The position numbers and the translations under genes were made by a program. The notes under the pieces were generated by a model, which saw only the letters and a list, made by a program, of their open reading frames with translations, ran no database searches and was not told the DNA's origin. From positions 1-64,000 of the forward strand of contig JACVGT010000013.1 of the NCBI GenBank assembly GCA_018992685.1: DNA of 64,000 bases, given 5' to 3'. The DNA comes from Theionarchaea archaeon. Its GTDB lineage: Archaea; Methanobacteriota_B; Thermococci; Methanofastidiosales; SZ-28-30. Positions 3,001 to 55,391 of the stretch are shown piece after piece. Numbering within the stretch: the stretch's first letter is position 1; each line of letters begins with the position of its first letter.

Positions 3001-6000
3001 GAAGAGAACAGGGAGAGTCCATGGATTCGTCACTGATGTAGGAGGAAGTGTACTGGAAGATGTGAAAGTCGAGCTCTCAGGAAAGTACACTACGCTGACA
3101 GACTGCAGAGGATACTACACCGTGCTCAATGTGCCGACGGGAACGCACACGGGAACTGCATACAAGGCAGGTTACCAGATGCGGAAGTACCATGATCAGA
3201 ATGCCAGTATCGGCATTGGATGGTCGTGGTTCGGTGGTATTCCAGTACGAGCAGATTGGGCTGCAGTAGGTGCAGTACTACCTCCCATAGTACCCAACCC
3301 ACCGGCAGGTAATTTCCCCCTGCTGGTAATGACTGGTACGCCCACAACAGGATGGATCAGTGGATATCTCACTCTGGAACTCACTGATGGATTCTGTGAT
3401 GTCAACGTCAGAGTAAATCCAAGCGGCCAAGAAGCAGTAACGGACAGTGAAGGGTACTACCTCATTCTGAATGTACAGCCCTGGGATCAGTACTATCTGC
3501 ACATGGAGATCACCAACTACCTGGTCGAAACACAGGGACCCATTGCAGTCAGCGCAGGAATAGAGACCAAGGTCATCACATCCCACCTGAAACGGTACTC
3601 CTGCAATGTATCTGGATACATTCGGGAAGGATCGACACCGGTTGCGGGTGTGCAGGTCAAACTGTCTGACATGCAGAGAACACAGCTCGAATCATCCCTG
3701 TATGGTAGACATCTGGGATACTATATTACCACCACCGATGGAGCCGGATACTACGAATTCAAGGATGTGCCCTGGTCAGATGCGCAGGTATCTGATCTCA
3801 ACAAGACTTGGGCATGGAGTGTAGTAGCCCAGAAGACAGACTACTATGTTGGCGTCCTCAATGTTGTTGTGGTCTATCCAGACTGCAACGTAACAAATGC
3901 CAATATGGATTTGGTGTCCATGAATGGTGGTATCTCCGGTACTGTGACCTGGGACCCAAGCTGTGCTACTGAAGCAACAGTCACTGTGGCACAGGTTTTG
4001 GGTGGATCAGGAAGTGGAAGTGCCACTGTCAGCAACAGCGGCGACACCTACCTGATTAGTAATCTGCCCCCTGGCGCCTATGACGTGACTGCTACAGCAG
4101 GAAGCTGTGGCTTGGCAAATGCAGTCCCACCTCCGCCATATACCGGCGCATATGCTGTTCCTGTAAACTCTATCAAGACGGACATTGATTTCGCCTTCCA
4201 GAGTGCAGGAGCTCCTCAGCCGCCACCTGACCCACCTTCATTGGTAGCCCCAAGTAGTGGAGCCTCAGGTACCAGTTGTACTCCCACGCTGGACTGGAAT
4301 GATTCCACAGGTGCAACTGCCTACACTGTGCAGCTCTCTGTGTCTTCAGGCTTCAGTTCCACCGTGGTCAACCAGACAGTCAGCTCATCACAGTACACTG
4401 TCCCCGCAACAACCTTGACCAGTTATACCACGTATTACTGGCGCGTCAATGCCAGCAACGTCAATGGTACCAGCGGATGGTCCTCTGTATGGCACTTCAC
4501 GACTGGCGATTGTGGTGGAGCAACTGTACCCAACGCACCTACGCTGGTAGCGCCCAGTAATGGAGCCACCGATGTAAGCTGTGCACCCACCTTGGACTGG
4601 AACGACTCTGGAGGAGCTACATCATACACCGTGCAGATCTCCACCAGCAGTGCTTTCGGGTCTACATTGGTCAATGAGACAGTGTCGGTATCGACCTACA
4701 CAGTCCCCAACGGAACACTTTCAGGCCAAACCACGTACTACTGGCGGGTCAGCGCATCCAACTCAGCAGGCACCAGTGGCTGGTCTTCAGTGTGGAACTT
4801 CACCACAGGTGACTGCGGCTATGTCTGCCCGGGTAATGTGTGCGGTCACACAGATCCCCCTGAATGTACTGTACGGGCATACTTAGCAGGACACCTGAAA
4901 GATTCTGCAGCACCGTACTTCTACGAGACCACCTCAGACACCAACGGCGACTTCTACTTCAACCTGCCCACCACGTCCTGGGATCCTTTGTATGAACAGG
5001 AAAGAGAACCTTCCCTGTACAACATTGTGGTCTCCAAAGATGGGTATGTCGTTCAGTTCAAGACAGTAGAAGTAAGCAGTCTTACCGTTACCTGGTACGA
5101 CAATGCAGGCGGTGTTTCAGATGGCAACTTCACTCTTGGAAGCACGGGAACTGATATCTCAGGAACAGTCACTGATGGAACCTCCGGAATGCAGACTGTT
5201 GCAGTGAGAGCCTTTGACAAAGACTTCAAAGGAAGTCTTGTGAAAGTAGCTTCAGCCACAACAGATGCTTCAGGTGACTACACACTGACCTCATTACCCA
5301 CGGGAAGAACATACATTGTCAGTGCAAGCAAGGCCAACTATACCATCAAGAGCAATAACGTCAGTGCAACGACGAGCTCCAACAACTACACACTGCAGCA
5401 GGCAGATGGATCTTCAGTGATCTCCTACACAATCAAACTGAGATTCAATCCGGCAGACACACTGTATGACAAAGGGTGGAACATGGTGTCCATACCACTT
5501 AATGTAGATGCGAACACGCCACTCGCTGTCCTCATGTATGAACATGATGACAAGTGGATGCAGATGACCAGGTTGAGACCTGGAACTGGATTCACACCAC
5601 CTGGACACGCTTCAGGTGGAGCATGGCAGATCTACCCCAACTCTCCCTTTGCATCAGGGTCTGACAATGTGTTCACGCTGCACGAAACCACCTACAATGC
5701 TCAACCCTACAGGTACGGGTACTGGATCAAGGTAACAGGGAACTCAGCTGAAATAACATATGATTGGGTTGTCATTGGCACACCCAATACTCAGAAGACA
5801 ATTCAACTGAGAGCTGGATGGAACCTTATCGGACTCGCAACACAGACCAACAATCAGTCATTCACAAACGGAGGACAGATAACGTTCAGTCCCACTGCAC
5901 TGCTCCAGGTGTGGTCATTCGACGCTTATGCTGCAGGTGATACGCAACTAGGGACGCACTGGTACGCCTATATCGTTCAGGGATACCAGTCATCAGGGTT

Positions 6001-6070
6001 TACGGTGATGAAAATCGGACTAGCGTATTACGTGTACGTCTCACAAGACTGTACCATGTCCTACGCTTAG
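77..6070 (+). CDS. Giant secreted/cell-surface protein with many carboxypeptidase-regulatory-like (CnaB-type) beta-sandwich repeats and two FN3-like repeats
   Basis: 1997 aa; GGAGGT RBS upstream; signal peptide ending in ANA|Q; recurring G.V.....G...V.......TD..G.Y units; DxNxN/DxDGN Ca-loop-like motifs near the N-terminus; GWNMVSIP and GWNLIGL motifs near the C-terminus. Confidence 0.85.
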   Translation: MENKPAKRGLSLFICIILIGSLVILSPREANAQPYAIAGLIYADVNMNSIYDPANGDYVISGEQWTDGDGNDRFDWIDANANGLMDAGEVSEAFVDDGLDAAGGTRDLGEGDTVFEGPEVWLDQPNAPTSPTCTANETAGYAGALPAAVAAGWTHNLSNYMIRNLQPGYHYVTVRCPGFYTQTKNVHVLGNVPVNFGLIPFDSVAGRIVKTDGTGICGMWVTATAQSAPYSNQTPAFNLNMLSDAVGNYVLQGLPPGQYRIDVNKAEYIPQQKLNITVDGQTYPNTPFMVNAHTTTGIDFINMSYNYGSITGIVAGPPSVVVEVPGLGLSTTADASGRYTISNIPAGWYYVVFRAEGWYTGVEYVCVAPGPAATNVRGGVPYVMTSCPSCPTTTIEGSITDGIQAIENAIVEVPGMGWIFQGVNNAANRNVISDKAGYYIYTDIGPGNPSLSYATWGGFRYQFTPTTGRFFVTVRNEAGVVFDEWDDHHKSTARAVEVVAGRVTRADFKMEENPDYKFGRVVDTNGIGVEGAKVYIPNSPYTTVTDSNGYFFLLLPAETYSEDCEMSWQVRIRPGRRAEETLLCGFRDVFQRLIAAPLPVPEASNPHRMYKARYLIKAEKSNYFDAMFIHISSPGPKGVNRPPLDEQGIPRAPVDDCEQCMNGIVMTIKAGILKGQIKDATGSYLNDGFLFVCGRDIPIRANGWFESLEMPVGTYTAVVTDATKLQVLGVIEGVQVKYDQITYKNVTLPATPPGKFISGFVYHNTVRTTVGPDAPVDGTGAWQGYIIPDQNLYSPGTTFQPGEGISGVAVKTTFGGITAYTDSYGFYIIKNVILPSGTSTTTIVATKADYVTLANPSVGPSDGLNFVNGFAGDSGATVFPMSKRRGTLNGRVVNDDGRDVSGAVVSVWIPWERKDETDTNGFYIFENLEIGSYLMKICGGGDCGIDYWVTYSVNEFGQGEPVVLNSIVTKDFTYKKRTGRVHGFVTDVGGSVLEDVKVELSGKYTTLTDCRGYYTVLNVPTGTHTGTAYKAGYQMRKYHDQNASIGIGWSWFGGIPVRADWAAVGAVLPPIVPNPPAGNFPLLVMTGTPTTGWISGYLTLELTDGFCDVNVRVNPSGQEAVTDSEGYYLILNVQPWDQYYLHMEITNYLVETQGPIAVSAGIETKVITSHLKRYSCNVSGYIREGSTPVAGVQVKLSDMQRTQLESSLYGRHLGYYITTTDGAGYYEFKDVPWSDAQVSDLNKTWAWSVVAQKTDYYVGVLNVVVVYPDCNVTNANMDLVSMNGGISGTVTWDPSCATEATVTVAQVLGGSGSGSATVSNSGDTYLISNLPPGAYDVTATAGSCGLANAVPPPPYTGAYAVPVNSIKTDIDFAFQSAGAPQPPPDPPSLVAPSSGASGTSCTPTLDWNDSTGATAYTVQLSVSSGFSSTVVNQTVSSSQYTVPATTLTSYTTYYWRVNASNVNGTSGWSSVWHFTTGDCGGATVPNAPTLVAPSNGATDVSCAPTLDWNDSGGATSYTVQISTSSAFGSTLVNETVSVSTYTVPNGTLSGQTTYYWRVSASNSAGTSGWSSVWNFTTGDCGYVCPGNVCGHTDPPECTVRAYLAGHLKDSAAPYFYETTSDTNGDFYFNLPTTSWDPLYEQEREPSLYNIVVSKDGYVVQFKTVEVSSLTVTWYDNAGGVSDGNFTLGSTGTDISGTVTDGTSGMQTVAVRAFDKDFKGSLVKVASATTDASGDYTLTSLPTGRTYIVSASKANYTIKSNNVSATTSSNNYTLQQADGSSVISYTIKLRFNPADTLYDKGWNMVSIPLNVDANTPLAVLMYEHDDKWMQMTRLRPGTGFTPPGHASGGAWQIYPNSPFASGSDNVFTLHETTYNAQPYRYGYWIKVTGNSAEITYDWVVIGTPNTQKTIQLRAGWNLIGLATQTNNQSFTNGGQITFSPTALLQVWSFDAYAAGDTQLGTHWYAYIVQGYQSSGFTVMKIGLAYYVYVSQDCTMSYA
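4226..4819 (+). repeat. Tandem intragenic duplication of an FN3-like domain (2 x 97 aa; 4226-4516 and 4529-4819)
   Basis: Both copies read P.LVAPS.GA...SC.PTLDWNDS.GAT.YTVQ.S...TTYYWRV.ASN..GTSGWSSVW.FTTGDCG. Confidence 0.9.
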
Positions 6071-15057: not shown

Positions 15058-15495
15058 ATGAACAGGAAAGAAGCACTCCTGACTGAAATGAAGACATCCG
15101 TGGAGAACCTCTTGGAAGCAGCTCAGGCAGTGAAAGGATTCGAATCCACTCCCGTAACGGGCACCTGGACCGCAAGTGAGGTTCTGTCTCATATAGCAGC
15201 CTGGGATCTCTATTTTAGAGAGCTCAGCAAGACCCTGAAGAGAGAAGATCCTCTACCAGAATGGCCTGATTTCAATGAATTCAATGAGAAAGCAGTTTCA
15301 GAAAGAAGGGACAAATCCAGAGATCAACTCGTTGAGGAAGTGAGGAAAACCAGGGACACGTACATACAGTTCATACAGGAGCTGCCTGAAGATGAGGTTT
15401 TCAACAAGGGAGTCCACAAATTCAGCATAGGAAGCCTGGCCAAGGACATCATTGACCATGATAAACACCACCTGAAACAGCTGAAAGCGCACTAG
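15058..15495 (+). CDS. DinB/DUF1706-like four-helix bundle protein
   Basis: WTASEVLSHIAAWD and C-terminal HDKHH. Confidence 0.8.
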   Translation: MNRKEALLTEMKTSVENLLEAAQAVKGFESTPVTGTWTASEVLSHIAAWDLYFRELSKTLKREDPLPEWPDFNEFNEKAVSERRDKSRDQLVEEVRKTRDTYIQFIQELPEDEVFNKGVHKFSIGSLAKDIIDHDKHHLKQLKAH

Positions 15496-32208: not shown

Positions 32209-33000
32209 ATGGATACATCTTCTCTCCAGAACCTTGCCACTGCAATCAAGAAATCATCACGAATTGTCTCTCTTACGGGAGCTGGCATCTCTGTCGCTTC
32301 TGGCATTCCGGATTTCAGGTCGGAAGGAGGATTGTGGACCCGGTACGATCCTTCTCTGTATGCATCCTATTCAAAGTTCGTTGAAGACCCTTCCTACTTC
32401 TGGGAGATGCACATAGAGACCATGCGCCTCATTGACAGAGCCCGGCCCAATCCAGCCCACAGGGCGCTGGCCGATCTGGAAGAATTAGGTCTCCTCAAGG
32501 GAGTCATCACTCAGAATATTGACGGACTGCACCAGGATGCAGGAACCAGCACCGTTTACGAGCTCCACGGCACCAATAAGACCAGTTCCTGTATCATTTG
32601 CAGAAGACAATATCCCACAAAAGAGATTGCTGACCACATCTTCTCCTTCCAGAAGGAAGATCTCATCAGAAAAATGCGGAGGGGAAATGAAATTCCGGCC
32701 TGCGATTGTGGCGGATGGATAAAGCCAGACGTTATCCTGTTCGGCGAGAAAATGTCACATGAGGTTGCTGTCGCTGCGCAAGAGCTTGCGTCTTCCTGTG
32801 ACCTTCTCTTGGTAGTGGGAACGAGTCTGCAGGTTCAGCCCGCTGCGTCCCTTCCCTTCGCCACCAAGCACAACGGAGGCGCAATAGCCTTCATCAACAG
32901 AGAGCCCACCTTCTTGAACAGAATCGCCGACCACGTATTTCTGGGAAAGGCAGAAGAAATCCTGCCTGAACTAGTCAACATGCTGAATGCCGCTACCTGA
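32209..33000 (+). CDS. cobB: NAD-dependent protein deacylase (sirtuin)
   Basis: TGAGISVASGIPDFR, ITQNIDGLH, ELHG, CIIC...CDC, KPDVILFGE, GTSLQVQPAA. Confidence 0.95.
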   Translation: MDTSSLQNLATAIKKSSRIVSLTGAGISVASGIPDFRSEGGLWTRYDPSLYASYSKFVEDPSYFWEMHIETMRLIDRARPNPAHRALADLEELGLLKGVITQNIDGLHQDAGTSTVYELHGTNKTSSCIICRRQYPTKEIADHIFSFQKEDLIRKMRRGNEIPACDCGGWIKPDVILFGEKMSHEVAVAAQELASSCDLLLVVGTSLQVQPAASLPFATKHNGGAIAFINREPTFLNRIADHVFLGKAEEILPELVNMLNAAT

Positions 33001-33811
33001 GTGCAGATCTCACCTTTTCCGGGGTCAGAATTCCATACTCTGTGATAAATCCTCTAAAATACTTGAGAGGAGTTCCATCAAAGTAGTAGTTTTTCACTCG
33101 AATGTTCTCATGTTTTTCAACAAGGACTTCATCTGGGTCTCTTTCTTCAATGGTAACATTCCGCCTGGTAAACTTGCTGGTAGAACATGCTACATATGTG
33201 GGGTAACACTTCGCTAGCAATTTTGTGCCAATCTTGTTGATAACATAATCAGGGGTGACTGAGTCCGCACCCACCAAGACAAAATCTGGGTTGAACAGGG
33301 AGGCAGCAGCGTCCACGATGAAAATCACCTCTATGCCTTTGGCAGCTAGCGACTCCGCCAGTAATTTCCCCTCGTAGTTTGGTCTACTCTCTGTGACAAT
33401 CAGGTAAAATGGATTCTCCTTATATGCATGGACTAAGATCTTTTCCACTGTAGAGCTTCTGCTGTGGGCTAACACTGTGGCCCCTTTCCTGATAAGGGAG
33501 CTCCCATGCTGTACGATGATTTCTTCTGCTTTTTTCAGCAATTGAACCCTTTCTCTGGTGGTGGCTCTGACACGTTCCAGTGCTTCCTGCAGAGTTTTCC
33601 CTTCCACAGCTGCATCCAGGACATGAAAAAGCTCGTTTTGAAGAGAAACCATACTCCGGTGAGCATCCGAAATCTTGGAGCACTGTTCTTCAATGAGGCG
33701 GAGGAACTGCTCTCGTGATGTGAACTCTCTTTCAGTGAATCTAAATAAATGGACAAGGGCTTTTTCAGTCAGTACCGCAGCTCCAGATACGTTGTCCTCT
33801 TCAATGCTCAT
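32993..33811 (-). CDS. eIF-2B alpha/beta/delta-like protein
   Basis: SGA, AHSRSSTV, TESRPNYEG, VDAA, VLVGADSV, INKIGT, FD.TP. Confidence 0.88.
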   Translation of the reverse strand: MSIEEDNVSGAAVLTEKALVHLFRFTEREFTSREQFLRLIEEQCSKISDAHRSMVSLQNELFHVLDAAVEGKTLQEALERVRATTRERVQLLKKAEEIIVQHGSSLIRKGATVLAHSRSSTVEKILVHAYKENPFYLIVTESRPNYEGKLLAESLAAKGIEVIFIVDAAASLFNPDFVLVGADSVTPDYVINKIGTKLLAKCYPTYVACSTSKFTRRNVTIEERDPDEVLVEKHENIRVKNYYFDGTPLKYFRGFITEYGILTPEKVRSALR

Positions 33812-33991
33812 GCATAAAGGTTCTTTTCATTGTATAAGAGGGTTTGGTTTCCGTTCATGGAATCGAACTCAGACTCAGTGCGATCCTCTTTCAACGTACA
33901 CGGATACATGGAAAGAGCCCCATGCATCCTGAGAACTGGACCAAATTGCTGATAACAAAACACATATAAACCTGAGCTGACATCGTAGTCC

Positions 33992-34441
33992 ATGGCAGAC
34001 ATTATCGTCAACAGGAAGAGCTTCAAGCAACTTCCCAGAATGACCAGGGACTTCATGAAGCGGGCTTCTTCAGAAATCGATATCATAACCCGCTCTTTTA
34101 CCTGGGCAGATGATGAGACTCTGGAAACCATGTACGCTCTGATAAACAAAGGTGTTAGGATTAACATTGTGGGAAAATATGGAGATGAATCGAAAGAAAT
34201 CATTAAGCAGCTGATAAAGCTTGGTGCCACAGTAAAGCTTCACGAATTCGCTGGTGAAGCCCGTTTCATGATCATTGATGAGAAAGAAGTCGTTTTCGCC
34301 ATCAGAGAACCTCTCACTCCAACAGAACGGCACTATGTTGGTATCTTGATGAAGGATGAATCCACCGCACGAACAGTAAAACAGTACGTTTTTGATGCAA
34401 TATTCAAGGAGGCTGAGGAAGCATCCTATGTTGTCTCTTGA
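33992..34441 (+). CDS. Stand-alone TrmB effector-binding/PLD-like domain protein
   Basis: A.SEIDI, KGVRINIV, RFMIIDEKEV; no HTH and no intact HKD; overlaps the bshC start. Confidence 0.6.
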   Translation: MADIIVNRKSFKQLPRMTRDFMKRASSEIDIITRSFTWADDETLETMYALINKGVRINIVGKYGDESKEIIKQLIKLGATVKLHEFAGEARFMIIDEKEVVFAIREPLTPTERHYVGILMKDESTARTVKQYVFDAIFKEAEEASYVVS

Positions 34442-35948
34442 TCCTCGCCTTTACCTTTCAGGACTTCCCCTGGATTACTTCACCAACTTTTGCAAAGTTG
34501 CCTCCTATTTCTCTGCAGACTACCATACGATAATGTCAAAGAAAAGTGCTATATCTGATGAGGTTATTTCCTCCATTGAATCTTATAATAGAGAGATAGG
34601 AGCAAGTTCCCTCGTCTTTGAGAATATCGCCCGGTTGCAGGAGAACTCTCCCGTGGTGACCGGACAGCAGCCCTGCTTACTGACAGGACCATTGTTCGTC
34701 GTTTACAAGGCACTGACGGCAGTACTCCTGGCAGAAAAGCATGGGACGGTGCCCATATTCTGGAACGCCTCAGAGGATGATGATGCAGTCGAGGTAAACC
34801 ACATCTGGGTTCACAATACAAAGCTTGAAGAAATCTCCATTTCCCTTGAGTCAGGACCTTTCTTCACTTCAGATATCAGTCCTCAAGAGAAGACCCATGT
34901 AATCACCATGCTCAGAGAGTTGACACCCCCAACCGAGTTCCGCGAACCTGTTCTGGACATGATCAGTGCAAGTTCGGAAAGGTTTTCTCAGATGTTCTCT
35001 CAGCTCCTATCGACTTTGTGCAGCGAGTACGGACTTATCATGGTGGAACCACATCTTTTCTATGAACATGCTATTCCTCTCTATGAACAACTGATCACTC
35101 ATCCCTTGAGAGCCACAGCACTGGTGAATGAAGCGGGCAACCACCTTGAAGACATGGGATATAAAAGACAGGTGCACAAGCCAGCAGAGATGTGCAGTTT
35201 CTTCATTCTTGAACGTGGACACCGACATTCAGTAACCTTTGATGGAGTATTCCATGTGGAAGATGAATCGTTCACGACTCCAGAAATGCTGGCCTACCTA
35301 TATGATCATCCAGGACAGGTTATTTCGTCAGTGATCTCCAGGCCGCTCGTCCAGGACTTCCTCTTATCAACGGCGGCGTACTGTGCTGGACCAGGCGAGG
35401 TATCATATTTCGCCCAGATGAAACGCGTGTACGAGTTCTTCAAGGTCAAAGAACCTGCCATCGTGCCCAGGCTTGGAGCAACTCTCATGGAGCCCAAGGT
35501 GCGCAAAGTGCTGGAAAAGTACGCATTAGAGGTTTCTGAACTTAGAGAGCCGGAAAAGGTATTGAAATCAATAGTAAAGGAGAATATCGAAGAATTCTTT
35601 GATGTACAGAAGAAAGAGGTTTTTCAGATCATGGGAGGTATCCAGGAGTACATCACACAGGTAGACGAGAGTCTGAAAAGAACTGGGGCAGCCATGACAA
35701 ATCACATTCTGCAGGACCTCAAGAGGTTGGAAGACAAGACAGCCTCTGCTCTCAAGAAAAAAAACGAAATTGTACTGCAGCAGATAATGAAAGCCTCTTC
35801 CAACACATTTCCCAATAATGCTCTCCAGGAAAGGATGCTCAACATATTCCAGTATATAATCCGGTATGACACTGTCGTAGAAGCAATATACGAATCATTC
35901 CGTCACGCGGTTCCAGGAGAACACCTCATACTCCCCCTTGGTGATTGA
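34428..35948 (+). CDS. bshC: Bacillithiol biosynthesis cysteine-adding enzyme BshC
   Basis: VVTGQQ..LLTGPLF.VYKA, PIFW.ASEDDD..EVNH, SRPLVQD.LL...AY.AGPGEVSYFAQ, PR, LQER. Confidence 0.9.
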   Translation: MLSLDPRLYLSGLPLDYFTNFCKVASYFSADYHTIMSKKSAISDEVISSIESYNREIGASSLVFENIARLQENSPVVTGQQPCLLTGPLFVVYKALTAVLLAEKHGTVPIFWNASEDDDAVEVNHIWVHNTKLEEISISLESGPFFTSDISPQEKTHVITMLRELTPPTEFREPVLDMISASSERFSQMFSQLLSTLCSEYGLIMVEPHLFYEHAIPLYEQLITHPLRATALVNEAGNHLEDMGYKRQVHKPAEMCSFFILERGHRHSVTFDGVFHVEDESFTTPEMLAYLYDHPGQVISSVISRPLVQDFLLSTAAYCAGPGEVSYFAQMKRVYEFFKVKEPAIVPRLGATLMEPKVRKVLEKYALEVSELREPEKVLKSIVKENIEEFFDVQKKEVFQIMGGIQEYITQVDESLKRTGAAMTNHILQDLKRLEDKTASALKKKNEIVLQQIMKASSNTFPNNALQERMLNIFQYIIRYDTVVEAIYESFRHAVPGEHLILPLGD

Positions 35949-36611
35949 ATGGATGTCCTTGCATTTTCACCTCATCCCGATGATGCCGAATTGGGAACTG
36001 GCGGCTTCCTCTTAGAGATGCGAAAAAAAGGGTATACCACAGGAATTGTGGATCTAACAGCTGGAGAACTGAGCAGCGCTGCCACTGCTGAAATCAGGGC
36101 GGCAGAATCAGAGGAAGCTTCTCGCCTTCTGGATCTAGAAGTCAGGGAAACCATGAACTTCAGAGACGGCAGCCTTACAGATTCATTTGACTCCCGGTTA
36201 CAGGTGGCAGAAATCATCAGAAGGTATAAGCCCCGGGTTGTGTTGGCGCCATACCACGAAGACCGTCATCCTGACCATGTGGCCTGTTCTCTCACGGTAA
36301 AGTCTGCTGTCCTCTATGCACGCCTCAAGAAACTCGGAGAACCACATTACCTCACCCACCTCTACTATTACATGCTGAATACTCCTTTTGCACCAACCTT
36401 CATCATGGATATATCTCATTCCTTCGAAAAGAAGATGGAAGTCCTTTCATGTTATAGATCTCAATTCGGGGCAGAGATTCCCCTTCTCAAAGACTACATA
36501 CCGCACGCACGGACAAAGGCCTCCTACTATGGATCATTGGTCTCTGTGGCATATGGTGAACCCTTTGGGATAGAAGGATTTTTAAAAGTAAGTGACCCTG
36601 TTAATCCATGA
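35949..36611 (+). CDS. bshB1: N-acetylglucosaminyl-L-malate deacetylase BshB1
   Basis: DVLAFSPHPDDAELG, DLTAGE, R.AE, IRRYKP, DRHPDH, Y.SQF, YGEPF; lies between bshC and bshA. Confidence 0.9.
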   Translation: MDVLAFSPHPDDAELGTGGFLLEMRKKGYTTGIVDLTAGELSSAATAEIRAAESEEASRLLDLEVRETMNFRDGSLTDSFDSRLQVAEIIRRYKPRVVLAPYHEDRHPDHVACSLTVKSAVLYARLKKLGEPHYLTHLYYYMLNTPFAPTFIMDISHSFEKKMEVLSCYRSQFGAEIPLLKDYIPHARTKASYYGSLVSVAYGEPFGIEGFLKVSDPVNP

Positions 36612-37687
36612 GAATTGGGATCACCTGTTACCCCACCTTTGGAGGGAGTGGCGTGCTGGCCTCAGAACTTGGCCGTCAGCTCTCCAAGACCCATGACGTG
36701 CATTTCATCTGCTATGCACGGCCCTTCCGTCTAGAAGGGACAGATATCCCTTTTCACAAAGTCGATGTTCTGGCATATCCCCTCTTTAAATTTCCCCCAT
36801 ATACGCTGGCGCTGGCCTCTAAAATGCTGGAAGTGGTCCAGGAAGAAACCCTGGATATCCTCCACGTTCATTATGCAGTTCCCCATTCCACATCTGCATA
36901 CTTGGCCAAGAAGCTACTCAAAGACTCCATCAAGGTCGTGACCACGCTGCATGGGACCGATGTCCAGCTCGTGGGACTAGATCCTTCGTACTACAGTATA
37001 ACGAAGTTCTCTATTGAACAGGCAGATGGTGTTTCTGCAGTCTCAGAATCTCTGAAGAATTCCACCAAGGAGAGATTCAACATTGAAAAGGATATTCAGG
37101 TCATTTACAACTTTGTGGATCCTGCTCGATACTGGACGGAGGACCATGAGAAAAAGGTAGTCACTCACATGTCCAATTTCAGGCATATTAAGAGAATTCC
37201 CGATGTTATTGATGCATTCTGTAAAATCTCGTCTTTGGTACCTGCAAACCTGTACCTGGTGGGTGATGGGCCAGACCTGCCGTTAGCTGAAGAAATGGTT
37301 AAGAAATGCAAGATACAAGACAAGACAACGTTTTTTGGAAATGTCTGCTCCATAGAGGAAATACTGGCCAGGACTGACATATTCCTTCTGCCCAGTGGAC
37401 AGGAGAGTTTCGGACTCGCAGCTCTTGAAGCTATGGCTTCCTCTGTGCCTGTGATAGCCACTAATGTAGGAGGACTACCTGAGTTTATCGATCATGGAGA
37501 AAATGGGTTCTTGTGCCCCTTGGGAGATACACAAGCCATGGCAGAATATGCAGTTGAGCTGCTCCGGGATGAAAACTATCGAAAGGAAGTTGGCAAGAAA
37601 GCCAGAAGAAAAGTCGAAAAATGGTTTACTCCTGAGATTATTGTACCCCAATATGAAGCTTTCTATGAATCAGTGTTAACAGCGTAA
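36608..37687 (+). CDS. bshA: N-acetyl-alpha-D-glucosaminyl L-malate synthase BshA (GT4)
   Basis: MRIGITCYPTFGGSGV.A.ELG, YPLF.FPPY.LALASKM, LHVHYAVPH, TTLHGTD, HMSNFR..KR, ESFGLAALEAM. Confidence 0.95.
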   Translation: MRIGITCYPTFGGSGVLASELGRQLSKTHDVHFICYARPFRLEGTDIPFHKVDVLAYPLFKFPPYTLALASKMLEVVQEETLDILHVHYAVPHSTSAYLAKKLLKDSIKVVTTLHGTDVQLVGLDPSYYSITKFSIEQADGVSAVSESLKNSTKERFNIEKDIQVIYNFVDPARYWTEDHEKKVVTHMSNFRHIKRIPDVIDAFCKISSLVPANLYLVGDGPDLPLAEEMVKKCKIQDKTTFFGNVCSIEEILARTDIFLLPSGQESFGLAALEAMASSVPVIATNVGGLPEFIDHGENGFLCPLGDTQAMAEYAVELLRDENYRKEVGKKARRKVEKWFTPEIIVPQYEAFYESVLTA

Positions 37688-37770
37688 CAGTGATAGGAGA
37701 GATTTATATCCTCCTTCGAAGATAATATGCCAGCCATACCACAAAAATAGGGTAAAAAAAGGGAAAAGGA

Positions 37771-38682
37771 TTAGATTTCTACCTGCAGCCCCAGTTCATC
37801 CTGGAGCTCTTTGTATCTATTGCGGATGGTGACCTCAGTGACATTAGCCACATCTGAGACTTCCCGCTGTGTTTTTCTCTCGTCCTCCAAGATAGAAGCT
37901 ATGTAGAGCGAAGCGGCCGCGATGCCCTTAGGACTCCTACCAGAGAGTAGTTCTCTGTCGATTGCCTCTTTCAGTATTTCTGAAGCCTTCCTCTGGACTG
38001 CAGGGGATACTCCCAGTTGAGAGGCGAATCGAGGTAGGTAATCCATAGGATTAGTGGGAGGTAAATTGAAGCCCAGTTCCCGCATAATATAGCGGTAATC
38101 CTTGGCAATCTCCTTTTTTTCCACTCTGGCGTGTTCACTTATTTCATCCAGTGTCCGCGGCACTCTGCACTGGCGGCATGCAGCATAGAGGCAGGCAGAT
38201 GCCATCCCCTCTATGGATCTCCCTCTAATCAAATCTTCTTCCAGACACCGCCTGTACAGCACTGCTGCTGCTTCCCGAATATTCTTGGGTAATTTCAGAT
38301 GAGAGGACAGGCGCACAATCTCAGTCAGGGCAAAAGCCAAATTGCGAGCAGCTGAAGAGGAAACCTTCATCCTGCTCTGCCATTTGCGCATCCTGTAGAC
38401 CTGTGCCCTGCGCCTTGGAGAAAGGTCTCTGCCATGAACATCCTTGTTTCTCCAATCAATCTCTGTGGAAAGGCCCTTATCATGGATCATATATGTCATG
38501 GGGGCACCCGTGCGCTCCCTTTCATCTCTTTGCTCAGAGTCAAAAGCTCTCCATTCAGGACCCATATCGAGAATCCCTTCCTCGATCACCAACCCACAAT
38601 TGCTACACACTATCTCTGCCCTATCATAGTCCTGAACAAGGCCTTTGCTCTTGCATTCAGGACATATTTTGTCACGTAACAT
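37771..38682 (-). CDS. tfb: Transcription initiation factor IIB (TFB)
   Basis: CPEC...CSNCG Zn ribbon, [48 protein letters not shown]. Confidence 0.97.
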
Positions 38683-38903: not shown

Positions 38904-40217
38904 TCAGACACTATCTTCCAAAAGCTTCTTCATCAGCTCCAGCTTCTTCTCTTTGGCAAATCGGAGTTTATTCATCTTCTTTAACTCTACCTGTCGGGTG
39001 AACAGCATGGTGTCAGGTTCCAGGTTCTCGTCCACCATGACATGAGACCCCACGATAGAATTGGGACCGATCCTCATCCCAGGCAAGATGGAAGCATTGA
39101 TGCCAGTCTTGCAGTTCTCCCCCATGACGCACCCGAACTTGTCCATCCCCGTTTCCACAGACTGCGCATTGATTTTCACCTTCACCTGCTTTTCATCAAA
39201 GCGGAAGTTGGCAGTGACTGTCCCCGACCCAAAAGAGCATCCATCGAGGATGATGGAGTCACCCACATAATTGGTGTGAAACCAGCAGTCGGCTCCGATG
39301 TAACAATTCTTTACCTCTGTAGAGAACCCAACCACTGTCCGTGCTCCGATATGAGAATAATCTCTCACCAGAGAGTTGTTCCCAATGATGCACCCTGGAC
39401 CCAGATACGCAGGCCCATGGACAGTGGCATACTCAAAGACTCTCACATCTTCTTCAATTATGACCTTGCCTTTTATGGTAGCTTTTTCAGAAATCTCCGC
39501 AGACTCTGCAACCCGGGGCAGTGCTGTGTCCATGAAATAACGTGTGGCTGCAAAGATGTGCCAGGGATACTTGACAGCAGTCCAGAACCCGTCATACATC
39601 ACGGGTGAAAACACAAATCCTTCCTTTATCATGGAAGTGAGGGCTTTCTCATACACGTCATCACGAGAACTTTCTGTCTTTTCCAGGAATTTCAACAGGG
39701 TATCGGCATCCCTGTGGTAGTGCACCACAAGGTTTACCAGATCGGAGGGTTCATTCCCCGCTCCGGGTTTTTCCATGATACCCTTGACTTTTCCTTGGTC
39801 AACTATGAGATACCCGCCCGGGAAGTATTTCTGCACCTTGTATCCAAGAATGCACGCATCACTCTCGCCTTCACGTGCAGCGAACATATTGTGGTACGCA
39901 GAAGATTCAAACAGGTCATTGGGGTTTACCACCAAGATTTCATCGCCTGAGATGACCTCTCTTGCAGCAAGGAGCGCATCTGCCATCCCTAGAGGATGTT
40001 TCTGCACCACGTAAGCATGAGCATTGCCAGCCACTTCTTTGATATCTGAAATATTCTCGGGGTTGGAGACGATGACAAAATCATTCACGCCTGCTCTCTG
40101 AGCCAGCTCGATTTGATGTAAGATGAGTTCTTTGCCCAGAAACTTTAGCAGACATTTCTCCTTTACAATAGGGAACATTCGTTTCCCCACGCCGCCTGCA
40201 AGGAAGACAATCTTCAT
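38904..40217 (-). CDS. Bifunctional sugar-1-phosphate nucleotidyltransferase/acetyltransferase (GlmU-like)
   Basis: LAGGVGKRMFP, PLGMADAL, EKP, YPW; hexapeptide tail with NYVGDS, TANFRFD, KTGINAS. Confidence 0.88.
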   Translation of the reverse strand: MKIVFLAGGVGKRMFPIVKEKCLLKFLGKELILHQIELAQRAGVNDFVIVSNPENISDIKEVAGNAHAYVVQKHPLGMADALLAAREVISGDEILVVNPNDLFESSAYHNMFAAREGESDACILGYKVQKYFPGGYLIVDQGKVKGIMEKPGAGNEPSDLVNLVVHYHRDADTLLKFLEKTESSRDDVYEKALTSMIKEGFVFSPVMYDGFWTAVKYPWHIFAATRYFMDTALPRVAESAEISEKATIKGKVIIEEDVRVFEYATVHGPAYLGPGCIIGNNSLVRDYSHIGARTVVGFSTEVKNCYIGADCWFHTNYVGDSIILDGCSFGSGTVTANFRFDEKQVKVKINAQSVETGMDKFGCVMGENCKTGINASILPGMRIGPNSIVGSHVMVDENLEPDTMLFTRQVELKKMNKLRFAKEKKLELMKKLLEDSV

Positions 40218-41569
40218 GGATCCACCTTCTCGAGAGCTTTTTCTACTATTTGGTTTCCTTCATTCAAAAAGGTTTCCATAGCAGATAGAGATTCAGACTC
40301 ACAGAGTACCCGTATCACAGGTTCAGTCCCACTTGGTCTGATCAATAGCCAGGAATCAGTAAATTCAAGGCGAATACCGTCCAGCAAGCTGACGTTCTCA
40401 GGAGACAACTGGGACAGGGAAGATTGAACCTCACTCATGAGCTGTTCTTTCCTGTTGTTGGGGCAGCGGATGCTCGATTTCGCAAAGTACATGGTGGGCA
40501 ACGAGGCAATAAACTGGTGGATTTGATGAGGATGGTCGATGTGCTCAAGCAGGAGAAGTGCAGCATACAGAGAATCAGGATGCATGCCTATTTCGGGCAA
40601 GACGTATACACCAACTTGTTCTACTCCAATGCAGGCATGTTTTTCTTTCAGAAGCTGTGCAACGTGAACATCCCCTACTTTCCCACGTTCCACTGTCCCC
40701 CCTGCCTTTCCTACAGCGCAGTCCAGAAGCCGCCCTGTTTCCACTGTGGTGGCCACCACCTTTCTGGAGGACTCCTTCACCACCAAATATGAAATGAAGG
40801 CAATCATCTCGTTGTATCCCAGGAATCCCCGGTCATCGCAAAATACTACCCTGTCAGCGTCCCCGTCGAAGCAAACAGCAAGATCAGCTTTTTTGTCCTT
40901 GAGGTATTGCACGGTCTGCTTCAGGGTGTCTTCCTTGGGCTCCGAAGGTCGAGAGGGAAACCTACCATCAGGGACATCATTTATTGGCAATACAGAGATG
41001 CCCATCTCCTCAAATAACTGGGAGGCGATTCCGGAAGCAGCTCCATTTCCGGGATCAACTACTACCTTTAGCTGAGTATCAACTGAGATCTTATCCTTCA
41101 CTGCTTCAAAATAGTGAGTGTGGGCATTCTCCTGTTTTGTCATGTGCCCCAGACTGCTCCAGGGCGCTGTTCTAAATGCTTTATCGAAATAAATCCTTTC
41201 GATGTACTGTTCCTGTTCGACAGAATAGCCAATCGTTGAGGGATTCCATAATTTGACCCCGTTGAACTCAGGGGGATTATGGGAAGCAGTGATCATCATG
41301 CCGGAAGCCATTTCCAATTCCCTGGTCAGAAAAGCCAGACATGGGGTGGGAAGTATCCCGAAATCCACCACATTCACGCCTGCAGAGAGAACTCCCGCGG
41401 TCAGACTGCTCTTGATCATATCCCGTGACAGCCGCGGATCAGTCGCCACACAAACCTGGGAATCTGGAGGTAGCGAGGAGCCCACAGCCTTTCCAAGGTT
41501 CAACGTACTCTCGGTGGTGATCTCTTCATTGACTACTCCCCGAACTCCACTGGTTCCGAATAACCTCAT
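40214..41569 (-). CDS. glmM: Phosphoglucosamine mutase / phosphohexomutase
   Basis: LFGTSGVRG, MITASHNPPEFNG, FDGDADR, VGD, LIRPSGTEP. Confidence 0.88.
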   Translation of the reverse strand: MRLFGTSGVRGVVNEEITTESTLNLGKAVGSSLPPDSQVCVATDPRLSRDMIKSSLTAGVLSAGVNVVDFGILPTPCLAFLTRELEMASGMMITASHNPPEFNGVKLWNPSTIGYSVEQEQYIERIYFDKAFRTAPWSSLGHMTKQENAHTHYFEAVKDKISVDTQLKVVVDPGNGAASGIASQLFEEMGISVLPINDVPDGRFPSRPSEPKEDTLKQTVQYLKDKKADLAVCFDGDADRVVFCDDRGFLGYNEMIAFISYLVVKESSRKVVATTVETGRLLDCAVGKAGGTVERGKVGDVHVAQLLKEKHACIGVEQVGVYVLPEIGMHPDSLYAALLLLEHIDHPHQIHQFIASLPTMYFAKSSIRCPNNRKEQLMSEVQSSLSQLSPENVSLLDGIRLEFTDSWLLIRPSGTEPVIRVLCESESLSAMETFLNEGNQIVEKALEKVDP

Positions 41570-51035: not shown

Positions 51036-52997
51036 CTAAATTTGAAGAGCGGCGTTGGCCCCTTCATGAACTGCTCTCAGAATGGATTTTGGTTCCACAC
51101 AATCCCCTATTGCCCTTAGCTTGTAAAAATCTGTTTCAATCAGTTCCTCCAATATCTTTCTCTCTGGGTAGAATCCCACTGCCAGGATGACCGCATCTGC
51201 TTTCAGCAATCGCTCTCCCGAGGACTCTGCAATAATTACGCCTTCTTTCACAATTCTGACTGCTCTCGAATTGGGCAGCATGACAACTCCCAGATCTTTC
51301 AATGCCTCGCACGTTACATACCGTGCAGAAACTCCCATATCGGGACATATGACGGGCAGTTGTTCAATAAGAGTTACTTTCCCTCCTTTTTCCGCAATGA
51401 ATTCTGCCGTTTCTGCGCCCACTCGACCTCCACCGATGACGACCACAGCTCCCACGGGAACTGTGGCACCCTTGAGAACATCTTGAAATCCTTGTACACA
51501 TTCAGAATCAACTCCCGGTATTGAAAGTGTGGCTGGGACTGCTCCTGTGGCAACGATGACAACATCGGGAGACTGACTCACAACGAAGTCAGTGGTGACT
51601 TCCTTTCCCAAGACTATCGTGACTCCCAGGGCTTCAAGCTGATGAATCAGCCAGCTGAGAAACTCCTGCATTTCTTCTTTGTGGGGCGGCTTAACGCCTA
51701 GTACCATCTGTCCTCCCAGTTCCTTCCCTCGTTCATACAGAGTCACTGTGTGTCCTCGCATGTGTGCATACAGTGCGGCTGTCATACCGGCAGGGCCTCC
51801 ACCAATGACCATGACCTTTTTTGGGGTTTCCACTTTCCTAATTCGGAATATCCTTTCCCTCCCAAGTTCTGGGTTGATGGCACAGGTACATGCTGCAAAC
51901 CGGCTGGTATCCAGATCCAAACATTGGTTGCAGGCGATGCACTTTCTGATGTCTTCAGTTCTGCCTTCTTGCACTTTCTTTGGCAATTCTGGATCTGCCA
52001 GCAATGCTCGGGCCATTCCAACGAGATCCAGGTTTCCTTCAGACAGTGCCCTCTCTGCCAGCCAAGGATCATTTATCCTCCCAACTCCAATGACAGGGAC
52101 ATCGACAACCTCTTTTACTCCAGCAGACAGCCCCAGGTGCACGCCACGGGGTATTCGCATGGGAGGTATATTCCAGTTGGTGGCTTCAAGTATTGAACTT
52201 CCTGCAGAAACATTGAGCATGTCAGCGCCTGCCTCGACGAAATAGGGAGCCTGTTTCTTTGCTTCTTCAAGCTGGATGCCTGTCGGACCAAAGTAATCGT
52301 CACCATTCATGCGAAACGATATAGGAAAGGATTCCCCAGTTTCAGCCCGTACGCGCTCTATTATCTCTAGTGCAAAACGCATTCTTCCTTCAAAATTCCC
52401 ACCATATGCATCAGTTCTTTTGTTAGTATGGGGAGATAAGAATTGGTTGATCAAATACGAATGGGCCCCATGAATCTCTACCATGTCAAATCCTGCTCTC
52501 TTGATTCTCTGGGCTGCTTGCCCGTAGGCTTCCACAAGATCTTTGATGTCACGTGTGGACAGTCTGCGTGGGGTAATCATGGCCTTACCATGAGCTCCCA
52601 TAAAAGCTCCTGCATGGGCTACAGGGGAAGGCGCTACTGGTTCTGATCCATAGACAGACTCGGAAAGACGTCTGCCGCTGTGTATCATCTGTACTCCTGC
52701 TTTTGCCCTATAGTTGTGGAGGGCTCTTGCCAGTTCCTTCAATCCGGGCATGAGATCGTCACTATATACTCCTAACTGGTTCGGGCGGTACTTGGCTTCA
52801 GGGACTATATACGCACCCGCAGTCAGAATGAGTCCTGCCCCGCCTTCTGCCCTCCTTTCCAAATAGTCTATCATTCGAGGAGTAACGCTGCCATCGTAGT
52901 CTGCATACCTGACAATCATTGGTTCCATGACAATTCTGTTTTTCAGTTCCATGCCTCTTACAGACAGAGGACTGAACAGGTTTGGAAAGCTGTCCAT
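51036..52997 (-). CDS. NADH:flavin oxidoreductase with FAD and Fe-S domains (FadH/BaiCD-like)
   Basis: LKNRIVM.P, EIHGAHSYLINQFLSP..NKRTD.YGG, CIACNQC...C.INP, GGGPAG, GGGRVG. Confidence 0.93.
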   Translation of the reverse strand: MDSFPNLFSPLSVRGMELKNRIVMEPMIVRYADYDGSVTPRMIDYLERRAEGGAGLILTAGAYIVPEAKYRPNQLGVYSDDLMPGLKELARALHNYRAKAGVQMIHSGRRLSESVYGSEPVAPSPVAHAGAFMGAHGKAMITPRRLSTRDIKDLVEAYGQAAQRIKRAGFDMVEIHGAHSYLINQFLSPHTNKRTDAYGGNFEGRMRFALEIIERVRAETGESFPISFRMNGDDYFGPTGIQLEEAKKQAPYFVEAGADMLNVSAGSSILEATNWNIPPMRIPRGVHLGLSAGVKEVVDVPVIGVGRINDPWLAERALSEGNLDLVGMARALLADPELPKKVQEGRTEDIRKCIACNQCLDLDTSRFAACTCAINPELGRERIFRIRKVETPKKVMVIGGGPAGMTAALYAHMRGHTVTLYERGKELGGQMVLGVKPPHKEEMQEFLSWLIHQLEALGVTIVLGKEVTTDFVVSQSPDVVIVATGAVPATLSIPGVDSECVQGFQDVLKGATVPVGAVVVIGGGRVGAETAEFIAEKGGKVTLIEQLPVICPDMGVSARYVTCEALKDLGVVMLPNSRAVRIVKEGVIIAESSGERLLKADAVILAVGFYPERKILEELIETDFYKLRAIGDCVEPKSILRAVHEGANAALQI

Positions 52998-54108: not shown

Positions 54109-54227
54109 ATGAAAGTGGCCTACATCTATCCCCTTTCTCACTGATTGAGAGCTCTTGAATGTGAGACATTGCTTCTAGGAGACTGAGAGACAGAAAAGAA
54201 TTTATATAATGTACGACAAATGTGATC

Positions 54228-55391
54228 ATGAAAAACAGTGTGGTCGTTGTGGTATTTCTAGCCTTTGCAGCATCCATTGTCCTACTCTCCAGTCAGGCAT
54301 TCGCTGTCTCTGATGAACCCTTCACCATAACCATAGAAGTAGACAAAGGGTGCGGAGGCGACTATTTCGTTGGTGACATGCTCACTGTCACGTGGGTAGT
54401 CTCACACCCTTGCGAAATCGATTTCTGGGAAGAAGAACCTGACGGAATCAAGAGAAAACTCTCTTCAAGCATTATTTCGGGTGCAGGAAGTGGCTCTCGC
54501 GGGTGGACTCTGAAAGACTATGGATACGGAAGGAGAGTCATTCATGCAGAAGCAATCTCACCCTTTGGAATGGGAAATGCGTCATGTGAATATTACGTCC
54601 TGAAGAAGGCAGCAGATATTAGAGTTGAAGTCACTGACCAGGACGGGATGCCTATTTCTGCTGTAGAGGTGTTGCTGGACGACGCACACGTTGCAGCAAC
54701 TGATACCTCAGGAAGTGTCGTCATCCCAGAAGCAGAATTCGGAGAACACACCATTACAGCACGATATGGCGGAGAAGAGCAATCCACGAGAATTAGAATA
54801 GCTTCTACTCAAACTCAATTTGTGGATTTCGTGTTCACAATTGAGAAACAGGGATCCATCAAGATCCAGGTGGTAACCCAGAATGGAGATCCGGCCGCTG
54901 ATGCAGATGTATACGTTGACGGATTCAAAGAAGGTCGGACAGATTCAGAGGGCGTTTTCACCGTGACAGTTCCTGCTGGTGATCACACAGTAGAGGCCAG
55001 ATGGCAGAATCAATCAGACGAACAGCATGTTACCGTTTTAAGTAATCAGATGAGCTTTGCTGACCTCACGATCACCGTGCCTGTCGAGGCTGTACTGACC
55101 ATACGCGTTGAAGATGACGCAGGAACTCCTCTCAGCGACGCCAACGTGTATGTGGACAATGTCTTTGCAGGAAGAACTGACGCACAAGGGTTGGCCCAGT
55201 ACAGGACTGTTCCAGGCCCCCACACGCTGCGAGCAGAAAAGCAGGGATACATCACATCTTCAATGAATGTCAATGCAGGCGAAGGACAGACTGATGCAGC
55301 CTTGGTTCTGGCCCAGGAGGGAAAAGCGGCACTGTCGACAATTCTCGTACTCATAGGGCTGGGCTACATGCTCATGAGGAAGCGTGCATGA
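54228..55391 (+). CDS. PEGA/carboxypeptidase-regulatory-like domain surface protein with C-terminal TM anchor
   Basis: Signal peptide; three V.VD....G.TD..G......G.H repeats; C-terminal TM followed by RKR. Confidence 0.82.
   Translation: MKNSVVVVVFLAFAASIVLLSSQAFAVSDEPFTITIEVDKGCGGDYFVGDMLTVTWVVSHPCEIDFWEEEPDGIKRKLSSSIISGAGSGSRGWTLKDYGYGRRVIHAEAISPFGMGNASCEYYVLKKAADIRVEVTDQDGMPISAVEVLLDDAHVAATDTSGSVVIPEAEFGEHTITARYGGEEQSTRIRIASTQTQFVDFVFTIEKQGSIKIQVVTQNGDPAADADVYVDGFKEGRTDSEGVFTVTVPAGDHTVEARWQNQSDEQHVTVLSNQMSFADLTITVPVEAVLTIRVEDDAGTPLSDANVYVDNVFAGRTDAQGLAQYRTVPGPHTLRAEKQGYITSSMNVNAGEGQTDAALVLAQEGKAALSTILVLIGLGYMLMRKRA

Follow-up and report, generated by a model that had tools for sequence, protein, structure and literature searches.

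A probably functional and horizontally acquired bshC-bshB1-bshA operon in a Theionarchaea archaeon

The bsh locus and its genes

The present analysis concerns a stretch of 64,000 nucleotides (nt) from a Theionarchaea archaeon of an uncultured lineage living in sediment (contig JACVGT010000013.1 of assembly GCA_018992685.1, positions 1 to 64,000), hereafter the window, and more precisely the three adjacent genes bshC, bshB1 and bshA that it carries, whose bacterial counterparts direct the synthesis of bacillithiol, a thiol of low molecular weight. Taken together, the results make it probable that these genes form a functional operon acquired horizontally by this Theionarchaea-type archaeon, a member of the order of Methanofastidiosum and of the class that includes the Thermococcales. 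Three abutting or overlapping genes on the same strand had been predicted, and the corresponding open reading frames (ORFs) do occupy positions 34428..37687, preceded by a further small ORF and by a putative promoter element:

33963..33970, + strand: TATA-like box CATATAAA, read from the sequence
33992..34441, + strand: ORF of 149 amino acids (149-aa ORF), matching PF11495 and overlapping the start of bshC by 14 nt
34428..35948, + strand: bshC, 506 amino acids, cysteine-adding enzyme of bacillithiol synthesis (TIGR03998)
35949..36611, + strand: bshB1, 220 amino acids, GlcNAc-malate deacetylase (TIGR04001)
36608..37687, + strand: bshA, 359 amino acids, glycosyltransferase family 4 (GT4) N-acetylglucosaminyl L-malate synthase (TIGR03999)

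The ATG at 34428 fits the 506-aa database protein P0001 and was retained as the start of bshC, an earlier TTG at 34392 being also offered by ORF calling; a Shine-Dalgarno-like GAGGA lies at 34415-34419, 8 nt before this ATG. The first base after the bshC stop codon is the first of bshB1, which in turn overlaps bshA by 4 nt. The pathway had been described as complete, and the search with family models agrees, since BshC, BshB1 and BshA each score above their NCBIfam equivalog cut-off. The motifs on which the original prediction was based are likewise all present in the translations, namely IGITCYPTFGGSG and HVHYAVPH in BshA, HPDDAELG in BshB1, and GQQPCLLTGPL, AGPGEVSY, LQER and EDDD in BshC.

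BshA and BshB1 are canonical

BshA reaches 485.1 bits against TIGR03999 (cut-off 273.7), the next best family giving 125.3 bits, and contains a pair of GT4 and GT1 Pfam domains. It matches the solved BshA of Bacillus anthracis (2JJM/3MBO; E 3e-113, 382 bits) and of Bacillus subtilis (5D00; E 5e-98), and keeps 110 of the 113 near-invariant columns (conserved in at least 95% of 96 homologues), the changes being S139A, T143S and E279S. A grouping with generic GT4 enzymes, which would have contradicted the assignment, was not seen: in the BshA tree the generic GT4 paralogues are separated from the BshA sequences by a branch length of 2.36.

The PIG-L-domain protein BshB1 scores 213.3 bits on TIGR04001 (cut-off 182.5) and only 48.3 bits on the BshB2 model (195.25), and its best structural matches are 1UAN (E 1.2e-45), 2IXD (1.8e-39) and 6P2T (2.6e-33). 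Its predicted zinc ligands H9, D12 and H110 align with H12, D15 and H113 of the protein BC1534, and its residues D11, R50, R106, H107 and D109 with D14, R53, R109, H110 and D112. These BC1534 positions are named as metal ligands, catalytic residues (including the acid/base Asp) or substrate-binding residues in Table 1 and the text of PMC4101496, and all eight residues named there are kept in the alignment. As judged from their sequences, BshA and BshB1 are thus fully canonical, with intact catalytic and conserved residues.

Two further PIG-L/LmbE paralogues are found in the genome of the window (L071:1489-2184, G000:C18, and L072:1480-2160, G000:C1). Their scores against the BshB1 model, 99.5 and 81 bits, are under the BshB cut-offs; one paralogue weakly matches the Mca model, and both might be conjugate amidases or unrelated deacetylases.

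BshC and its variable EDHD site

BshC scores 342.6 bits against the TIGR03998 equivalog, 77 bits above the cut-off of 265.8. Both domains of the family, Rossmann-like and coiled-coil, are recognized (PF10079, 220 bits; PF24850, 86.7 bits), and residues 41-501 match the B. subtilis BshC structure 4WBD with an E-value of 2.3e-39. A set of 87 other BshC defines 66 columns with a conservation of 85% or more, and the BshC of the window keeps 54 of them. Comparison of the signature motifs GQQxGLLTGPL, FWxxxEDHD, AGPxExxY and QER locates one substitution in each of the first two, G83C and H118D.

The original prediction had remarked that EDDD stands here where EDHD is usual, a difference indeed visible when comparing with B. 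subtilis BshC (4WBD), which reads EDHD, and had proposed altered chemistry as a possible consequence. This second point is not sustained by the wider comparison. Of 119 aligned BshC, 81 carry His at this site and 35 carry Asp, the latter including 32/32 sequences of the Theionarchaea clade of the window. When only the archaeal clade described below and the group sister to it are compared, the site is His in the family's second genus (represented by genome G003), in Heimdallarchaeota and in two Bathyarchaeia, Asp in the genus of the window and three Bathyarchaeia, and Ser in the Atribacteria group, all these sequences retaining the other motifs. Since close relatives differ here, carrying H, D or S, EDDD looks like a variable position and constitutes weak evidence for new chemistry. 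The Gly to Cys change in the GQQxGLL loop is private to the genus of the window.

Distant BshC-like ORFs of about 580-600 amino acids were encountered in 61 of 301 sampled genomes of a Bathyarchaeia class, for example L030 (G362:C41:531-5024) and L033 (G299:C3:187935-192425). These ORFs (L030-L052) score 20-94 bits, far under the cut-off of 265.8, and form a separate long branch (1.06) in the BshC tree; no ORF of this type occurs in the genome of the window.

A conserved upstream ORF and a putative archaeal promoter

The 149-aa ORF matches PF11495 with 25.0 bits (cut-off 22.2), PLDc_2 being under its cut-off, and its nearest Atlas clusters are small archaeal TrmB-domain proteins (0.92). The predicted protein consists of one isolated domain similar to the sugar-binding C-terminal part of TrmB; its family profile recovered no solved relative, with nothing better than E 0.31 against known structures. 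Its identity across loci of the genus of the window is 95, 95 and 89%, compared with 78 and 58% for BshC. The database holds 29 homologues, 82-95% identical, and those bearing an organism name all come from Theionarchaea or Methanofastidiosia. In tblastn searches it was retrieved in one position only, immediately upstream of bshC, and only at loci of the type found in the genus of the window; with locus comparison, these searches established its absence from the G003, Bathyarchaeia and bacterial operons.

The TATA-like element CATATAAA has its centre some 25 nt upstream of the start codon of the 149-aa ORF and is likely the archaeal-type promoter of a leaderless four-gene transcript, in which the 149-aa ORF would probably be co-transcribed with bshC. 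A scan for sigma-70 promoters and terminators, which does not cover archaeal promoters, gave nothing above shuffled sequences, and the window has no Rfam match.

Other genes precede bshC elsewhere. In G003 the position is occupied by a different protein of 200 amino acids (L063:4277-4879, - strand, G003:C3), with no family match and 25% identity to the 149-aa ORF, beyond which lies a GalE-like epimerase. At one Bathyarchaeia locus, the gene found immediately upstream of bshC encodes instead a PEMT/ICMT-type membrane methyltransferase (L008:5226-5870, + strand).

The features of BshC and of the 149-aa ORF raise the question of whether the product could be a variant thiol instead of bacillithiol, made by a Theionarchaea BshC that adds another residue, uses another activated donor or works with the 149-aa protein as a partner. 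The substitutions G83C and H118D are fixed in 32/32 sequences of the clade of the window, and the 149-aa ORF, found nowhere else than directly upstream of bshC, overlaps its start and shows 82-95% conservation against 50-58% for BshC. A review also raises the possibility that BshC depends on a substrate, cofactor or protein yet to be recognized (PMC5790435). We nevertheless regard a variant thiol as unlikely: the H/D/S site varies among otherwise similar close relatives, the canonical BshA and BshB1 lead one to expect a GlcN-malate core, the absence of the 149-aa ORF from the other operons argues that it is no general requirement, and BshC clearly exceeds its equivalog cut-off.

The operon is native to an archaeal genome

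The operon had been described as flanked by archaeal genes, tfb and an eIF2B-like gene, and both were recognized on the opposite strand, together with genes of amino sugar metabolism:

32993..33811, - strand: IF-2B-family gene, flanking the bsh operon
37771..38682, - strand: tfb, the other flank (478 bits, cut-off 384)
38904..40217, - strand: archaeal glmU-like gene (TIGR03992 Arch_glmU, 282.5 bits, just under the cut-off of 292.1)
40214..41569, - strand: glmM (TIGR03990 Arch_GlmM, 449.5 bits, cut-off 439)

These near flanks also include gyrA, and the outer neighbours comprise a tRNA-intron endonuclease, a DRG-type GTPase and a presenilin-type signal-peptide peptidase. Among public loci the nearest is L005, likewise from a Theionarchaea archaeon (BshC 78% identity), in which all eight genes recur, their order unchanged, with an identical glmU-like/glmM neighbourhood. 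In L006 (BshC 58% identity) bshC-bshB1-bshA are again followed by tfb, and the same flanks recur in L005, L006, L074 and L075.

The junctions were further checked by aligning to the window the Logan contigs of sequencing runs from two other studies, which bridge two joins, that of bshC with the upstream ORF and that of bshA with tfb. Contigs of run X5 cover 34111-36626 and 36613-37840 with 0 differing letters each, and run X8 contributes a contig over 37286-38162; run X3 has pieces over the flanks only, and this gap in contigs carries no proof. The RNA run X18 gave contigs over tfb only, with 66 differing letters indicating the gene of a relative, and is uninformative on bsh expression.

The bsh genes have a GC content of 0.465-0.477, with a GC content at third codon positions (GC3) and a codon usage similar to those of their neighbours, which together with the conserved syntenic position justifies their earlier description as well integrated. 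The host genome is 91% complete with a contamination of 0.71%. That a bacterial fragment was mis-assembled into an archaeal bin or contig was considered only because the three families are typical of bacteria, and nothing was found in favour of it. Since both junctions are independently bridged, the flanks recur and the composition matches, a chimeric assembly can in practice be dismissed, and we give this explanation a negligible probability.

Elsewhere in the window, two ORFs with CarboxypepD_reg-like repeats presumably encode surface proteins (77..6070, + strand, 1997 amino acids, and 54222..55391, + strand, 389 amino acids).

Distribution among archaea

BshC exceeds the cut-off in 4/4 genomes of the family of the window, its own genome included, in 0/37 other relatives and in 0/129 other genomes of the phylum, 97 of which come from one other family. 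The pathway is a trait of one family and not of the wider lineage. In the class of a Bathyarchaeia carrier, two of the 301 sampled genomes have a BshC over the cut-off. The database relatives of BshC number dozens at 50-82% identity, and none is truncated.

One Bathyarchaeota chromosome of 1.09 Mb carries a bshA cut to about 85 N-terminal residues beside intact bshC and bshB1 (L007:8195-8602; G133:C1:290609-290863). No other BshA over the cut-off was found in this genome, and part of the locus consists of masked letters.

Phylogeny and origin of the operon

Scanning 1.84 billion cluster representatives in full with HMMER recovered 5881 BshC relatives. After the cluster of the window itself, the best matches belong to clusters named Candidatus Bathyarchaeota (39% identity), Candidatus Methanofastidiosia (37% identity, of the type seen in G003, the family's second genus) and Candidatus Heimdallarchaeota. 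Two BshC trees were built, a careful one with 48 sequences under LG+G4 and a quick one with 87 sequences rooted on distant paralogues. In the former, all 13 named archaeal BshC, from Theionarchaea, Bathyarchaeia and Heimdallarchaeota, and three unnamed sequences form a clade of 16 (support 96/97), whose sister (92/79) is a group including an Atribacteria sequence, the remaining tree being bacterial or unnamed; the quick tree agrees. The proposal that the pathway was acquired is thus strengthened by its presence in 4/4 genomes of the family against 0/129 others of the phylum and by the nesting of these relatives among bacterial BshC.

Within the family, the BshC of G003 groups with Bathyarchaeia and not with the genus of the window (94/92), a placement that may suggest two acquisitions, but the approximately unbiased (AU) test did not reject a single family clade for BshC (p 0.277). 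In the quick BshA tree, Theionarchaea, G003 and Bathyarchaeia fall in one group (support 94) that also contains Candidatus Aerophobetes sequences, so that archaeal BshA is not cleanly monophyletic.

The gene order was examined in metagenomes scanned with an alignment of the clade. Among the best 80 of 581 relatives, 38 loci were evaluable, having at least 2 kb after bshC. The order bshC-bshB1-bshA on one strand is found in 25 of these 38, the order C-A-B in 2, C-A in 3, C-B in 3 and bshC alone in 5. The flanks of 10 metagenome loci (55 ORFs) revealed bacterial neighbours around several C-B-A loci: a bacterial-type ValS (783 bits vs 704), pyruvate kinase, PurD and PurH in L105, MutL and MiaA in L107, and MnmA in L115. 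Because the same gene order is thus also present in contigs with bacterial neighbours and the archaeal clade stands beside the Atribacteria group, the simplest reading is that the operon was transferred as one block from anaerobic sediment bacteria and subsequently spread among archaea.

Predicted product and role of the operon

We infer the product, expression and role of the operon from its gene content and organization. BshA would attach GlcNAc, donated by uridine diphosphate N-acetylglucosamine (UDP-GlcNAc), onto L-malate, the zinc enzyme BshB1 would remove the acetyl group to give GlcN-malate, and BshC would then add cysteine, giving bacillithiol (Cys-GlcN-Mal) or a close chemical relative. 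The bsh genes are predicted to be translationally coupled and driven by one archaeal promoter, probably on a transcript shared with the 149-aa ORF. The whole block would derive from anaerobic sediment bacteria having the same gene order, the same operon lineage being now found in Theionarchaea, Bathyarchaeia and Heimdallarchaeota. As for the substrates, the glmU-like and glmM genes that could provide UDP-GlcNAc, the donor for BshA, lie beyond tfb on the opposite strand, outside the operon, and a malic enzyme is found in the host genome.

Several points weigh against a functional bacillithiol pathway. Bdr/YpdA, BrxA/B and BrxC were not found in the four family genomes, which are 84-91% complete: the model TIGR04018 has a match in 0/4 at E up to 1e-30 (the best, in G000, being 80 bits vs 339.9), and TIGR04019 and PF06491 are likewise at 0/4. 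No malate dehydrogenase of the lactate/malate dehydrogenase type (PF00056) was found in the host genome. BshC deviates at 12 of its 66 conserved columns, with G83C (GQQxGLL) and H118D (EDHD) inside signature motifs. Moreover, as reported in PMC5790435, bacterial BshC itself has yet to be made to work in vitro, and what donates the cysteine is not known, so that the final step cannot be read from sequence. Finally, bacillithiol had not been detected in any archaeon, as stated in PMC7278568.

The missing bacillithiol reductase and redoxins are also the evidence in favour of a pathway yielding no redox thiol in vivo, either because it would stop at GlcN-malate or GlcNAc-malate, used as a solute or a glycoconjugate precursor, or because the operon would be silent cargo. 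The genes themselves make this quite improbable, being intact, coupled and kept in every family genome searched as well as in the dozens of untruncated relatives, a retention which suggests purifying selection on the whole set. Furthermore, bacillithiol-type thiols are used outside Firmicutes by Thermus, Deinococcus and the anaerobe Chlorobaculum tepidum (Hiras et al.).

For a functional thiol pathway, the failure to find the known disulfide reductase and bacilliredoxins, together with the strictly anaerobic lineage, makes a role beyond classical aerobic redox buffering more likely, such as conjugation and detoxification, metal or sulfur handling, or recycling by another flavoprotein. The host genome encodes proteins resembling thioredoxin reductase (TrxR; 224 bits) and coenzyme A disulfide reductase (CoADR; 289 bits), both under the cut-offs of these families. 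The window also contains, at 51036..52997 (- strand), a fusion of 653 amino acids joining an Old-Yellow-Enzyme-type flavin mononucleotide (FMN) oxidoreductase to a pyridine-nucleotide-disulfide oxidoreductase (Pfam 277.6 and 112.6 bits), which is a weak match in the YpdA and CoADR searches.

Candidates for conjugation come from the DinB_2 superfamily, with two proteins in the host genome, one of them within the window:

15058..15495, + strand: DinB_2-superfamily protein of 145 amino acids (Pfam DinB_2 45.2 bits, MDMPI_N 29.1 bits)

This protein is present in 4/4 family genomes and 0/37 other relatives and could be a thiol S-transferase using the product of the operon, a link made by phyletic pattern only; the evidence is weak, as a bsh-like pattern reflects one evolutionary event. 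An independent link of the superfamily to the archaeal operon is suggested by the Bathyarchaeia bsh loci, where a conserved gene of 155-160 amino acids, similar to DinB_2 and mycothiol S-transferases (DinB_2 54-55 bits), lies divergently upstream of bshC (L078:5193-5660, L080:5138-5620 and L009:5210-5692, all on the - strand) and is a candidate bacillithiol S-transferase.

A broader proposal would make bacillithiol a main low-molecular-weight thiol of several anaerobic sediment archaea (Theionarchaea, Bathyarchaeia and Heimdallarchaeota), made by one spreading operon that functions without Bdr and Brx, with, in Theionarchaea, the 149-aa protein as an accessory factor of BshC and the disulfide recycled by another enzyme, for example a CoADR- or TrxR-like flavoprotein. 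We consider this proposal speculative and, as a whole, improbable.

Relation to earlier reports

The novelty implied by the original prediction has to be lowered, since archaeal BshA and BshC were already reported in 2020 and NCBI and JGI already name these proteins as BshC and BshA of Theionarchaea or Methanofastidiosia. The 2020 article (Rawat and Maupin-Furlow 2020, PMC7278568) counts archaeal homologues of BshA and of BshC at 39 InterPro hits for each family, most of them in Asgard. Our literature search found no paper linking Theionarchaea with bacillithiol, and archaea are unmentioned in Hiras et al. 2018 (PMC6282198). A 2025 survey based on RefSeq states that no archaeon has the complete pathway (PMC12719100); the present locus, with all three genes, contradicts this statement.

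The additions made here are modest, consisting of the lineage, the picture of a block transfer, the recycling enzymes that were not found and the conserved small ORF. They bear on a poorly known subject, the small thiols of archaea. With this locus the pathway, complete and canonical, reaches Theionarchaea, outside the Asgard group named in the literature. The locus also suggests that the bshC-bshB1-bshA operon, in an "archaeal-type" form, travels in one piece among the anaerobic archaea and bacteria of sediments. The conserved 149-aa protein encoded upstream is a candidate for a part in the unsolved BshC reaction.

Comparison with known thiol pathways

The mycothiol pathway (MshA, MshB, MshC) follows the same logic of a GT4 glycosyltransferase, a PIG-L deacetylase and a cysteine ligation, and the Msh models are far under their cut-offs for the window (MshA 59.7 vs 462.5 bits, MshB 25 vs 224). 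MshC is a homologue of cysteinyl-tRNA synthetase (CysRS) and is unrelated to BshC.

Among the closest known systems is the bacterial bacillithiol pathway of B. subtilis, B. anthracis, Staphylococcus aureus, Deinococcus and Thermus, which relies on the same three families, with the same zinc and catalytic residues in BshB1 and with solved BshA structures that the protein of the window closely matches. The locus differs from it in its archaeal host, in a BshC belonging to a distinct FWNASED[D/H/S]D subfamily, and in the failure to find Bdr/YpdA and Brx in the four family genomes. The gene arrangement also differs: according to PMC5790435, bshA and bshB1 of B. subtilis share an operon and bshC lies elsewhere, whereas the window has one compact bshC-bshB1-bshA unit.

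The archaeal homologues described in PMC7278568 likewise belong to archaea that possibly make bacillithiol, and a Heimdallarchaeota BshC falls in the clade of the window. As far as its available text goes, that article names Asgard only, whereas the window represents Theionarchaea, with all three canonical genes. With respect to lifestyle, a parallel is provided by the N-methyl-bacillithiol of Chlorobiaceae (Hiras et al. 2018, PMC6282198), a bacillithiol-type thiol of an obligate anaerobe from sulfidic habitats, for which a role in sulfur trafficking has been proposed and whose synthesis involves an additional methyltransferase, NmbA.

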